A DNA stretch of 64,000 nt, taken from the NCBI RefSeq assembly GCF_018350175.1, contig NC_058369.1:163308001-163372000 (forward strand), in the 5' to 3' direction. Within the stretch, counting starts at the first letter, position 1. The number at the start of each line of letters is the position of its first letter. This document shows positions 25,782 to 33,833 of this stretch, piece after piece. The position numbers and the translations under genes are program-made. This stretch comes from Felis catus. Taxonomy: Eukaryota. The notes beneath the pieces are model-generated. The model worked only from the letters and a program-made list of their open reading frames with translations. It made no database searches and was not told the DNA's origin.

Positions 25782-28095
25782 TCACTTGGAGCTGGTATAC
25801 TTGGTGACGGCCTTGGTGCCCTCGGACACGGCGTGCTTGGCCAGCTCCCCGGGCAGCAGCAGGCGCACGGCCGTCTGGACTTCCCGGGAGGTCAGTGTGG
25901 TTCGGCCCGAGTACTGGGCCAGCCGGGCAGCCTCGCCAGCCAGCCGTTCAAACACATCGTTCACAAACGAATTCATGATGCTCATGGCCTTGGAAGAGAT
26001 GCCAATGTCAGGGTGCACCTGGGGAAGCAGCAAGACCGTTCTGTTAGCGAGGAGGCTCCGCCCGACCCCGCCAGCCCCAGCCCCGAGTTCGAGTTCGGGA
26101 CTGCAGGAAGCTGGAGGCAGGACCGCAAGGCTGCCTCACCAGCCTCTTGCCAGAGGCCCAGCCCGGGAGGTAGGGATTTGGTTTTTTACTACCACATCCG
26201 AGTGAAAAGTTTTTCCCACCGGTAGGACGTAATGCTATTAAGGTCCTCGTATGAGCACATGGGAGCATCAGTCTTTGACAAATGGGGTCAGTTACACAGC
26301 ATTTTGCTTTTCTCATTTAATGCGTTTGCATAGGGTTACTCCTCGAGGTGACGTTCCCAGGGGTGTGACCGCCGCCGGGTCCAAGGGTTTATGCGCCTAA
26401 CTTGGCGGACTGTCACCACATTACTTTCCAGAGGACGCACTCATGTGACGCAGCCTCAGCACCAGACTAGGAGTTAGGACACCAGGGTTCTGTGGCCGGA
26501 CCGTGAGTCACCGGAGGACCTCAGATTAAGGCACTCTCCTCTGGGCCTCAGTTTCCTCCTCTGTCACACCAGCTTTTGAGCTAGATGATCTCCAGTCAAA
26601 CCGGCGGTAGGGGCCCGCTAACAACCCTGACGTGTGACCAGGCAGACATCAAGTGTTTCCCTGGGAGGTGGGAGAGAAGAGACGACCGGCGACGTCCATC
26701 AAGCCGATGGTGGACACAGAAGCGGAACGCAGGCTCTCGCCGCCGCCACTGGTTGCCACGGACAGCACAGGATCGGAGCCTAAACCCCTTGTGTCGTCAT
26801 CACATCGTTTTCCCCTTGGGGCTGAGGGGGCGCAACAGTTAAGTTTCACAGGAGTGAGGGTAACTCACTCAGCAGCTCTCCTTCGCGCGTGCAATCCAGG
26901 GCCCACACTTGTTTTTGAGCCCCAAGGTCGGCTGAGCCGCAGGGCTCACAGACGCCCCCAGCCCCACTTCCTCCAGGGTGCCAGAGTCTGTCCTCCGCTG
27001 CCACCCCTTTGGCCAGCCCACGCCAGTGTTGGTCCCACCCCCCGGCCCCACAAAAGCATTCCCAGAGACCCGGGGCGTCAGGTCACCGAAACTGCTAACG
27101 GGATCTAGACTCTAGGACCTGCTCGGACAAAGCAGTGGGACTCGGGCAGGTCGGGGAGGCTCAGGGCGGGCAAGACCGCTGGGCTGCCTGCTCCTGGCCC
27201 CGCTGAGTGGGCCAGAGGCTTCGAGACCAGGGTGCCTCGTGTACTAGACACACCGTTGTTGGGTGCCCACTGATGCCCCCCAAATACCCGTCAGTGTGCA
27301 AATGCCGGAGCGGGTGCTTCTCCTGGGTGCTCTGGTAGGCCGCATGAACAGAGAGCATTCGGAGCACCTGGGGGTTAAGAGGCGCGACCGGCGGGAAGTA
27401 CGCGAGGGGCCTGCTCAGGGCCGGGGGGCCTGACTGCTGCTGCTGTCAGGTCATGGGGCTCAGTCAGTGCTTTGCGCCTTTACGGACCTTAGTTCCTCAT
27501 CTGTACAGTAGGCCGGTCCCTCAGCCCCTCGGTGACCGAGTGCTGTGGGGCTGGGAGGCCTTGCCCGAGACCTCAGCTCGCACGCACCGCTCCCTGCTCC
27601 GGGCCACCACCGACTAGCGCCTCTGGTTTGTACCATGATGCGTCCGGCACGTGATCGTCCTTCAGCTCCACACTTTCGTACGGTCTTGCCTTTTACTTAC
27701 GTCCCTCCTGACGCTCCGCATAAGCGTTTGGTCCGTCCAGAGCCCCGTAAGCTTCCGGATTGTGGCGGCGTGCTTTAAATGTCTCTGGCACATCACAGGT
27801 GCACGACAGATACTGGGAGGCTGTGGGGACCTCTGAGATCGAGTGCGGCCACTTCACAAGGGGCACGGTGTGCCTGAGGCCCCTCCCCTCAGTGCCAGGG
27901 GCAAACGGAGTACGACTCTGTCCGGTCGTACTCTGCACACGCGCGCGCAAGCTCCCCACTCACCTGCTTCAGCACCTTGTAGATGTACATCGAGTAGGTC
28001 TCCTTGCGCCGGCTGCGCTTTTTGGACTTCTTGTCGCCGGAACTACGGCCCCTCCGGCCCCCCGACTGCTGCTGCTGTCCATGCTCTGCGCTCAT
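25782..28095 (-). CDS. H2BK1: Histone H2B variant H2B.K (H2BE1), two exons, 122 aa
   Basis: Exon 1 27964-28095 ([16 protein letters not shown]...[14 protein letters not shown]); exon 2 25782-26018 ([21 protein letters not shown]...AVTKYTSSK*). Complete H2B histone fold with a phase-0 intron, between ABCF2 and IQCA1L. Confidence 0.95.
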
Positions 28096-28138
28096 CCTCC
28101 TGCCCTTCCTAACAGCCGCCTCCTGCTCCTTGGGGGAC

Positions 28139-28252
28139 TTTTATGGGGTCAGCTGCCCACCAGGTGGGGCTGGGGGCCAGCACCTGGGGTGGAGGGGGTG
28201 GGCGGGGAGGAGCTTGGCCCATCCCGATCCAGAACATGCTCTGGGTTAATCC
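28139..28252 (-). promoter_or_regulatory. H2BK1 proximal promoter (TATA-like CATAAAA, three E-boxes, TAATCC)
   Basis: CATAAAA 28139-28145; CAGCTG 28150, CAGGTG 28161, CACCTG 28181; TAATCC 28247-28252. Confidence 0.5.
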
Positions 28253-30812: not shown

Positions 30813-30818
30813 TTTATT
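30813..30818 (-). terminator. AATAAA polyA signal of ABCF2
   Basis: AATAAA ~465 nt downstream of the ABCF2 stop. Confidence 0.75.
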
Positions 30819-31283
30819 GGACACTTGGTAGATGTCACGCAGGTCTAAAAGTTACACTGTTAAATAATTATTTAAAAACCGACCAGGACTAAAGCCCTGG
30901 TCCACAGCTCCAAACCAGAAGCGGAAAGGAATGGGGGCGGTGGGCTGGGGGGTATTCCTCCAACATCACCAAAACCCAGAAAACGAGGACCCTAAGCTCT
31001 TTCACAGGCCAACCCAGGATGTGGGCCCTTGGGCTAACCCTCAGGTGCCTCTGGCTGCATCACCATCAGGTCAGTAACCAGCAAGGAGCTGGCAGAACAG
31101 CCAGCCGAGTCCAGACATGGACAAAAGTAACTGCAAGGACAGGAAACGGACAGGTACTGTCCAGCTGTAGATAAGATCACAGAGTGCAGCTAAGGCAGGT
31201 GGGGACAGGGGAGGGGCTGGGGAGCGGTATTGCAGCAATGCAGGAGTGTGGCCCCAGAGGCCCAGCCCAGCCCGGGCAGGGGC

Positions 31284-33833
31284 TCACACATTGTGGGTCC
31301 TCCTGGTGAGCTGGGGCTCCTCGCCCACCAGCTTGGACTTGAGGTGCTCCTTGTAGGCCAGGATGTCTCCAGGCCACTTGGTGATTGTCTGCTTCTCACA
31401 GACCCAGATTTCCTGTGCAACCTAGAAAGGAAATCTGAGGCTCAATCCTCCTGGCCAGCACTCTCCCCATCCCTGCCCAGAAGACCACTGTCAGAAGAAT
31501 TCCAGGAAGAAACCTCCACCGCCCAGTTCCGTATGCGGCTCACAGTTCCACTGTCTCTCTGTTCTCTGGATGCCTAACCCAGGGGTACCGTAACCAGCAG
31601 GTTTGGAGCCTTCCAAGCCACAACCTGCTCTGTCTCCTGATTTCCAGCTCCCCGGCAGGGCCTAGAACTGTTTAGAGGCCTCGCCCGCAGCTTCCTGTTC
31701 TCTATCCCATCTTTCCCAAAGCTTCAGAGAAATGACCAGCGGCCTTTCCACCAATGACTGGTGGTAGCCCTCTAGTCCAAATCCTCCTTAGTATAATACT
31801 ACTTCTATGCTGAAGAATCTTGAGACAGTAGTAAAAGCACCCTATCCTCTACCCAACTCCCTCGCCAATTCTGGCTAACATTGCCAAATGCCAAGTAGGC
31901 TGATGTCTCCAAATAGCTACTGAAAAAATGAAAGTTTTCCATTAAGGCTTTCTCAGTTTTTCAAAGAGCCATAATATCTGGTCCTCATCACCCTGTCTAC
32001 ACCCTGAGCCCTTTTCCCAAATCCAATAAACACATATTAAGTGCCCTCCACATGCCATGACTGTGTCCTACCCAACCTTCTCCTGGCCGCCCTCCTCTCT
32101 GATTTCCACTCCAGCCAGGGGCCTCACCTGCTGAATGAGTCTGAAATCATGGCTGACCAGCATCATACCACCCTCAAACTCGTTGATGGCATCGGCCAGG
32201 GCGTCGATGGTCTCAATGTCCAGGTGATTAGTGGGCTCATCCAGGAAGAGCATGTGGGGGTTCTGCCAGGCCAGCCAGGCCAGACACACTCGGCACTTCT
32301 GCCCATCAGACAGGTTCCGGATTGGGCTCACCTGCGTGGAACCGCGACATTTACGGAACCTGGTGTTACTCCCACCACAGAGCATGACTCACTTCCCCCC
32401 CCCCCCCCCCCCCCCCCCCCCCGCTGCTTCTCCATTAATACTGCCACAATTCTACAAAAAGGAAGACCCAAGATCACAGTGAGATGGTACCAGTCTCTCA
32501 AGGCCCGTAAGGGATAAATGTGGAAGCCGGAAGCACTTGCTACTCAGGCCACACCTCTCGCTCTCCCTTGGCACTTAAATCGTAACTAAGTGGAACAATG
32601 TGGTGGACCTCAATCGAGATCTGAGTCCAGGAACTCGTTTTCTAGGTTTCAATTTCCCTCCCCCTCAAGCATTCTGGTTTATCTTGCTAGTCTGGGGCGA
32701 AGGCATGTCAGAGACTGGGATGCTATCCCTGCCCCTTCCTCATAATGAGACCTGAATATTCCAATACATACACCTAGGCCAAAGGAAAGCTAGCGGGTTC
32801 TTTCAGACGCTAGAATCAAAGGAAGAGACTTTTCAGTAGAACACTTGAATCTCAATCTCAGGGTTGTGAGTTCAAGCTCCACATTGGGCATGGAGCCTAC
32901 TTTAAAAAAAAAAAAAAAAAAAAGAGACTTTTGGGACAGCTCCCAAACTTGGGTCTCCAGGGCAGTGCACCCTGGCCGTGTAGCCACAATCTCCCAGTTA
33001 TCTGGCGCTGTTCCCCCACATCCCCCTCTGCTGACCTGCTGCTTCCCAGTGAGACCATNNNNNNNNNNNNNNNNNNNNNNNNNNNNNNNNNNNNNNNNNN
33101 NNNNNNNNNNNNNNNNNNNNNNNNNNNNNNNNNNNNNNNNNNNNNNNNNNNNNNNNNNNNNNNNNNNNNNNNNNNNNNNNNNNNNNNNNNATGTGACTGG
33201 TGTCCCACTTCAAAAGGAACCTCGCTGGGTTAACTGCTGAGTAACTCTCCACCTCTACCCAGGCACCTGTTCAAGATTCCAGGAGAAGCAGGCAAAAGCT
33301 GACTTGGTCACATGCAGCCCCCTTTCCATACCCTGGGCATCTCCCCGGACCCCAAGGCCTGTACCTGATGGTAACGCCCTATCTTGACATGAGAGTGTTT
33401 TCGGATCATCCCGTCTGTGGGTAGTAGCTAGAAAGAAGAGAGTATTAGGTGGAAAGATAAGCACACAGAAAGAGAAACTCGGTGAGAAGCAGACACAGAC
33501 AGACAGAGTAGGGAAATAAACATATGTTCACTGAACAAGACTCAGAACTTCCAAATAGAATCTATATCACTACCTCATAGACTGCTATTCTGGCCACTCT
33601 AAAAATATTTAGGAAGATATACTGAAACAGATGTTCTCAAGAGAGGCAAAGATACATACAACACGGTCTACTTAGTAGTTAAAGGTCTACTACAGAAGGT
33701 ACCACCAGTAAAACAAAGGACTCATATATATGTATAACATGGGTTTTCTAAAACAAAAACACGGCTCTCGACGCACAGATTTCCTCGAGATGCTCTAGCT
33801 GAAAACAGAAAAATGTTGAGGCACATGCATGTG

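Follow-up and report, generated by a model that had tools for sequence, protein, structure and literature searches.

The 64,000-nucleotide (nt) stretch of Felis catus DNA analyzed here, referred to as the window (NC_058369.1, 163,308,001-163,372,000), carries the genes ABCF2 and H2BK1 (H2B.K) as neighbors on the minus strand, and these two carry GT-AG sites able to join exons of both. We interpret this arrangement as the known ABCF2-H2BK1 read-through locus. Its joined transcripts are likely no more than a rare side product, and the short tail that they would add to ABCF2 corresponds to the histone exon read in its +1 frame. We assign this reading a probability of roughly 80%. The read-through has been published before, as has its prediction for a carnivore.

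The read-through junction and its product

ABCF2 ends with CAC AAT GTG TGA, and a cut after position 31288 puts its TGA (31286-31284) at intron positions +2 to +4. The acceptor of H2BK1 exon 2 reads ...cccag/G at 26018. Joining the phase-2 ABCF2 donor to this exon leads into the +1 frame, with 11 residues and a stop at 25984-25982. The original prediction had described exactly this architecture, a donor laid over the stop codon and a histone exon entered in a second frame, and each of its elements is read at the position proposed (Table 1). Orthology of the upstream gene is clear, as most exons are 90-100% identical to rhinoceros ABCF2 and the named top protein matches agree; two exons are partly masked. 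Exon 1 is one codon shorter than in the 625-residue rhinoceros protein, giving about 624 residues (the masked exons bar an exact count) and a predicted extended form of about 635, in agreement with the length first proposed.

A counterpart is found in L012:1959-7642, on a metagenome contig whose proteins are bird-like and which evidently derives from the host animal. This contig (L012) carries the complete H2B.K gene along with the final two exons of ABCF2, at a spacing near that of the window, and keeps the donor core, the frame and the stop position.

Most transcripts would end at the AATAAA of ABCF2 itself, while a minor fraction probably continues across 5.3 kb, and in these the weak donor overlapping the stop codon would pair with the next strong acceptor, that of H2BK1 exon 2. 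H2BK1 exon 1 would be skipped because it is a first exon, without an acceptor of its own. Transcripts whose stop codon lies in the last exon should escape nonsense-mediated decay (NMD). The stop of the tail lies in the last exon, and escape from NMD, as originally predicted, is expected here as well; the read-through RNA would end at the histone AATAAA. Its product would be full-length ABCF2 plus 11 residues past the region aligned with Arb1 and ABCF1: solved Arb1 and ABCF1 align to ABCF2 only as far as residue 605-608 of 625 (Arb1 to 605). The tailed product is probably tolerated because the extension touches only the terminus beyond the second ATPase domain. The donor core GT-G-T-R-A would be supplied by the conserved terminal Val codon together with the stop codon, and the stop of the tail by the histone Met-Ser.

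Table 1. Features of the ABCF2-H2BK1 locus in window coordinates
Feature	Position	Strand	Basis or remark
ABCF2 last coding exon, ends THNV-stop	31284..31421	minus	Sequence and homology
Weak 5' splice site TGT/GTGAGC holding the ABCF2 TGA (31286-31284)	31282..31290, cut 31288/31287	minus	Sequence; L012 counterpart TGT/GTAAGC
21-nt ABCF2 3' untranslated element shared with L012	31219..31239	minus	19/21 identical, E 0.044, weak
ABCF2 polyadenylation block: U-rich stretch, TGTA, AATAAA at 30818-30813	30803..30885	minus	76% identical to L012 across 84 nt, E 5e-8
Would-be read-through intron, 5269 nt (L012: 5311 nt)	26019..31287	minus	Predicted from the sites
TATA-like CATAAAA, ~45 nt upstream of the H2BK1 ATG	28139..28145	minus	Putative H2BK1 own promoter
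H2BK1 (H2B.K) coding exon 1, strong donor CAG/GTGAGT, left out of the read-through	27964..28095	minus	N-terminal sequence equals an H2B.K entry in the portion shown of the Raman 2022 supplement
H2BK1 coding exon 2 (histone fold)	25782..26018	minus	Pfam PF00125, E 7e-14; no difference from the Cat_H2B.K fold row in the part shown
First 37 nt of H2BK1 exon 2, +1 frame: 11-residue tail and TGA from histone ATG-AGC (Met-Ser)	25982..26018	minus	Sequence
H2BK1 AATAAA	25760..25765	minus	AATAAA after the stop in L012 too

The human locus has been described in some detail. In the sections available, Mudge 2019 (PMC6886504) reports the histone gene at this locus and an overlapping ABCF2-H2BE1 (H2BK1) model that rests on complementary DNA (cDNA) AL050291; the corresponding transcript is ENST00000222388 (Mudge 2019, PMC6886504; Seal 2022, PMC9526256). 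Thus, the annotated human read-through that the original prediction named is borne out. According to the same sections of Mudge 2019, PhyloCSF favors the histone frame, translation in the ABCF2 frame is "potentially spurious", read-through is rare in Intropolis, chicken shows no evidence of connectivity, and the cDNA represents a misleading read-through event. The human H2BK1 sequence in the supplement rows shown, read by eye, encodes the identical 11 residues, so that the shared C-terminus was correctly foreseen. Human and cat thus share the gene pair and its order, exon 2 in the ABCF2 frame, and the tail; the human join is supported by RNA, and that of the cat is predicted from the orthologous genomic sequence. 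The claim of retention in a carnivore stands insofar as the sites are present in the window, but it is not new: the portion shown of a 2025 pig paper supplement lists predicted ABCF2-H2BK1 in pig, walrus, baiji and yak. Our literature search on ABCF2 with the H2BK1 and H2BE1 names found no functional study of a tailed ABCF2 isoform. ABCF2-H2B is named in the gene list of a liver cancer study.

The locus fits the common class of conjoined genes (cis-splicing between adjacent genes) that preserves the frame of one parent and translates the other in a different frame, as in 79% of 297 cases given in the part available of Prakash 2010 (PMC2953495). Further likenesses to the cases described there are same-strand neighbors less than 10 kb apart, skipping of the downstream gene's first exon, and use of a new splice site (58% of cases). 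The commonest pattern drops the upstream gene's last exon, whereas here this exon is kept up to the donor within the stop region, leaving ABCF2 whole.

Constraint on the tail

The original prediction suggested that 37 nt of the histone exon may be dual-coding; in that case the tail would be a selected ABCF2 isoform, and this opening segment of exon 2 would be under constraint in both frames. The tail carries no targeting motif that we recognize. In the +1 frame, third positions of the histone become second positions of the tail, and a selected tail should freeze them. We compared 23 simian H2B.K coding sequences, obtained by a motif search of the Raman 2022 supplement S7 and inspected by eye; the supplement contains one or more further species beyond this set. 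Among the rows shown, the window's tail is encoded by human only (1/23). L5S is present in 17 sequences, chimpanzee, bonobo and gorilla among them, orangutan combines L5S with P11L, and the remaining four (three New World monkeys and one unlabelled row) combine L3P with L5S. Histone codon 5 is ATT in human and ATC in the 22 other simians shown, indicating that the T is human-specific. The match between the human and window tails is best explained by a CpG that decayed twice, independently. Outside primates, the tail of L012 differs from that of the window at 4/11 residues, and in the rabbit H2B.K row shown Lys at codon 10 is replaced by Arg, a change that necessarily alters the tail. The expected conservation of the second-frame peptide is not borne out by these sequences.

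The predicted excess of synonymous constraint in the first 12 codons of exon 2 also failed to appear, apart from one borderline human comparison weighed below. Third positions vary among the simians at 3/11 sites of the overlap and 21/62 of the rest (p=0.48, with three sites fixed by the search term excluded). Chimpanzee and window differ at 1/11 versus 17/65 third positions (p=0.20), and synonymous differences from L012 amount to 3/10 versus 24/58 (p=0.38).

H2BK1 exon 2 has 29 matches in its own genome, and the 10 of these examined as loci are the exon itself and nine canonical H2B genes. The +1 frame of these canonical genes gives 8-9/11 tail residues, more than the 7/11 of the L012 ortholog, and the unrelated variant H2B.1 likewise yields this shifted TGA from Met-Ser (13 of 104 places shown). 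Therefore, tail and stop are what any H2B exon would give. A separate locus, G000:C13:137323632-137323824, matches the 3' part of H2BK1 exon 2 (query 74-269) at 83%, runs past the stop and lies outside the histone clusters; it could be an H2BK1 retrocopy.

The identity of the human and window tails and the third positions of this same pair speak for dual coding, as does a change at histone codon 9 (Ser/Ala) that is silent in the tail frame; the way the two frames overlap, however, means that first-position changes of the histone often leave the +1 product unaltered. The replacements seen among primates are non-conservative and involve proline, 22/23 simians shown are unlike human, synonymous sites show no excess of constraint either among simians or against L012, and the published PhyloCSF signal lies in the histone frame. 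Hence, we regard true dual coding as highly improbable.

Exon 2 of CDKN2A, which encodes parts of p16INK4a and ARF, is a functional dual-frame exon, and both products are established proteins. As in CDKN2A, one exon is reached here from two upstream exons in different frames. Unlike in CDKN2A, the second frame comprises only 11 residues, which vary freely and come without protein evidence in the literature examined.

Donor strength and conservation

The donor had been described as near-consensus, which holds for its intron side; the exon side (TGT) departs from it, with T at -1 where 21/22 reference donors have G. The reference set consists of 22 window donors assigned by homology and inspection. 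The U1 duplex energy of the stop-codon donor is -4.4 kcal/mol, compared with -4.8 to -13.3 (median -8.7) for the reference donors, all 22 of which are stronger. Its matrix score of 0.6, from a small matrix that heavily penalizes T at -1, falls just outside the leave-one-out range of the reference donors (0.7 to 12.6). These scores show a donor that is weak, not unusable. Because 1119/3327 minus-strand GT sites score the same or better and pairing with U1 is weak, the motif alone is not beyond chance; between the start of the last exon and the AATAAA, 11/38 sites reach this score.

Several other sites touch this donor or its surroundings. Much stronger donor-like sites lie between ABCF2 and H2BK1 on the minus strand, at 29789 (AAG/GTGAGT) and 29173 (GAG/GTGAGG), and might define cryptic exons in run-on transcripts. 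A second acceptor within the ABCF2 3' untranslated region (UTR), with an exon from 31165/31164 to ~31071 (minus strand), would give a 123-nt intron from the stop-codon donor and a 30-residue hydrophobic tail. The Pteropus gene model P0004 has an equivalent join in the 3' UTR; its diverged sequence and repeated segment make it look like a prediction artefact. The acceptor of an IQCA1-like exon at 23414/23413 (minus strand) is in phase with the stop-codon donor, making an in-frame ABCF2-IQCA1L fusion formally possible, and the long fused gene models of Scotinomys and Varanus (P0025, P0048) run from THNV into an IQCA1-like exon.

It could be argued from the very weak donor score that the join is never made in this species, the site being a look-alike and the non-human records being projected from the human model. 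Such a view agrees with the own-genome search, in which the last ABCF2 exon matched only itself and no ABCF2 retrocopy was found, and with non-human records that carry no RNA evidence (N/A in the pig supplement as shown). Against it stand the human join, supported by cDNA and rare short-read junctions in the available sections of Mudge 2019 (PMC6886504), and the finding of read-through in 8/10 tested close same-strand gene pairs, given in the part available of Prakash 2010 (PMC2953495). We consider a complete absence of the join very unlikely.

Conservation of the donor rests on one non-mammalian outgroup, L012, and the window was the only mammalian donor DNA that the search brought up. The search for orthologous DNA yielded 20 loci in metagenomes, one of them usable (L012), none usable among 31 candidates in viral contigs, and one 9-residue chance match in prokaryote genomes; two fish-like ABCF2 loci end differently, without such a donor. 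The terminal Val and the stop codon by themselves dictate most of the donor conservation, as THNV ends 95 of 118 unextended termini. The alignment with L012 ends at donor +6, so that only +5 and +6 lie past the stop codon. A purine after the stop codon is favored for termination.

These features bear on the proposal of a regulated swap of the 3' UTR, in which the donor is kept on purpose, splicing to exon 2 replaces the conserved ABCF2 3' UTR and masks THNV, and the sequence of the tail is irrelevant. The retention of donor core, frame, stop position and spacing in L012 agrees with such a swap, as do the conserved 3' UTR blocks that it would remove, the frequency of THNV and the forms predicted for pig, walrus, baiji and yak. 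However, every kept feature can be traced to a separate cause (Val codon, stop codon, histone Met-Ser, synteny), the donor scores poorly and is represented by one non-mammalian sequence, and the published sections describe human read-through as rare and report none for chicken. The swap therefore appears unlikely. The conserved ABCF2 polyadenylation block points to selection for a transcript end ahead of H2BK1.

The protein survey covered the best 120 of 184 matches together with cluster members; 227 proteins were scanned, and the 11-residue tail occurred in none of the 227. The tetrapod-type ABCF2 end is present in 123 fetched proteins, of which 118 finish at the usual terminus; the other 5 run further, but in no case with the window's tail. 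H2B.K and ASB10 proteins also appear in the 90% clusters of turtle and amphibian ABCF2; this probably reflects how neighboring or fused gene models are clustered and is not evidence of read-through.

Some observations weigh against our interpretation of the joined form as a rare by-product. Human and window differ at 0/11 third positions of the overlap versus 17/65 elsewhere (p=0.049, one of several tests), and constraint tests on 11 sites have low power. L012 retains GTRAGC on the intron side, including the two bases past the stop, despite the change of the stop codon between TGA and TAA. The protein sample is weak evidence, with 15 of the 430 members of the main cluster listed and the human tailed form missed. 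Finally, the pig supplement as shown gives ABCF2-H2BK1 a score of 3, denoting transcription shown in pig, with N/A in its evidence column.

Genomic setting and implications

On the minus strand, the genes follow the order ABCF2, H2BK1, IQCA1-like, ASB10. This places H2BK1 syntenic downstream of ABCF2, in agreement with Seal 2022 (PMC9526256), as far as its available text goes. H2BK1 has two coding exons with an intron at KVLKQ/VHPD, and L012 is alike; TATAAA is also found upstream of the orthologous H2B.K ATG in L012. Expression of H2B.K in oocytes and early embryos is published for human, dog, opossum, pig and chicken (Raman 2022); in the portions available, that study describes H2B.K as a histone expressed in oocytes that rodents have lost, and ABCF goes unmentioned in its main text.

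The locus carries a caution for annotation that is already in print, namely that read-through hid H2BK1 from the human annotation; the available text of Seal 2022 (PMC9526256) likewise states that overlapping transcripts concealed the gene. Expression of H2BK1 is best measured on exon 1 or on the exon 1-2 junction; somatic reads on exon 2 may, as the original prediction suggested, stem from ABCF2. The new contribution of this analysis is a negative one: the identity of the human and carnivore tails is not evidence of dual coding, because it looks like convergence at a CpG site combined with histone-frame constraint.

A bolder idea, to which we give little credence, is an amniote-wide splice switch. 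The stop-codon donor would have been kept since the bird-mammal split, and ABCF2 mRNA would borrow the short 3' end of an oocyte histone, dropping its conserved 3' UTR and capping THNV with any short tail, and would thereby alter the stability or translation of ABCF2 in the germline in a regulated manner. If the donor were indeed maintained and regulated, a conserved ATPase that associates with the ribosome would carry an ancient switch of its 3' UTR and C-terminus.

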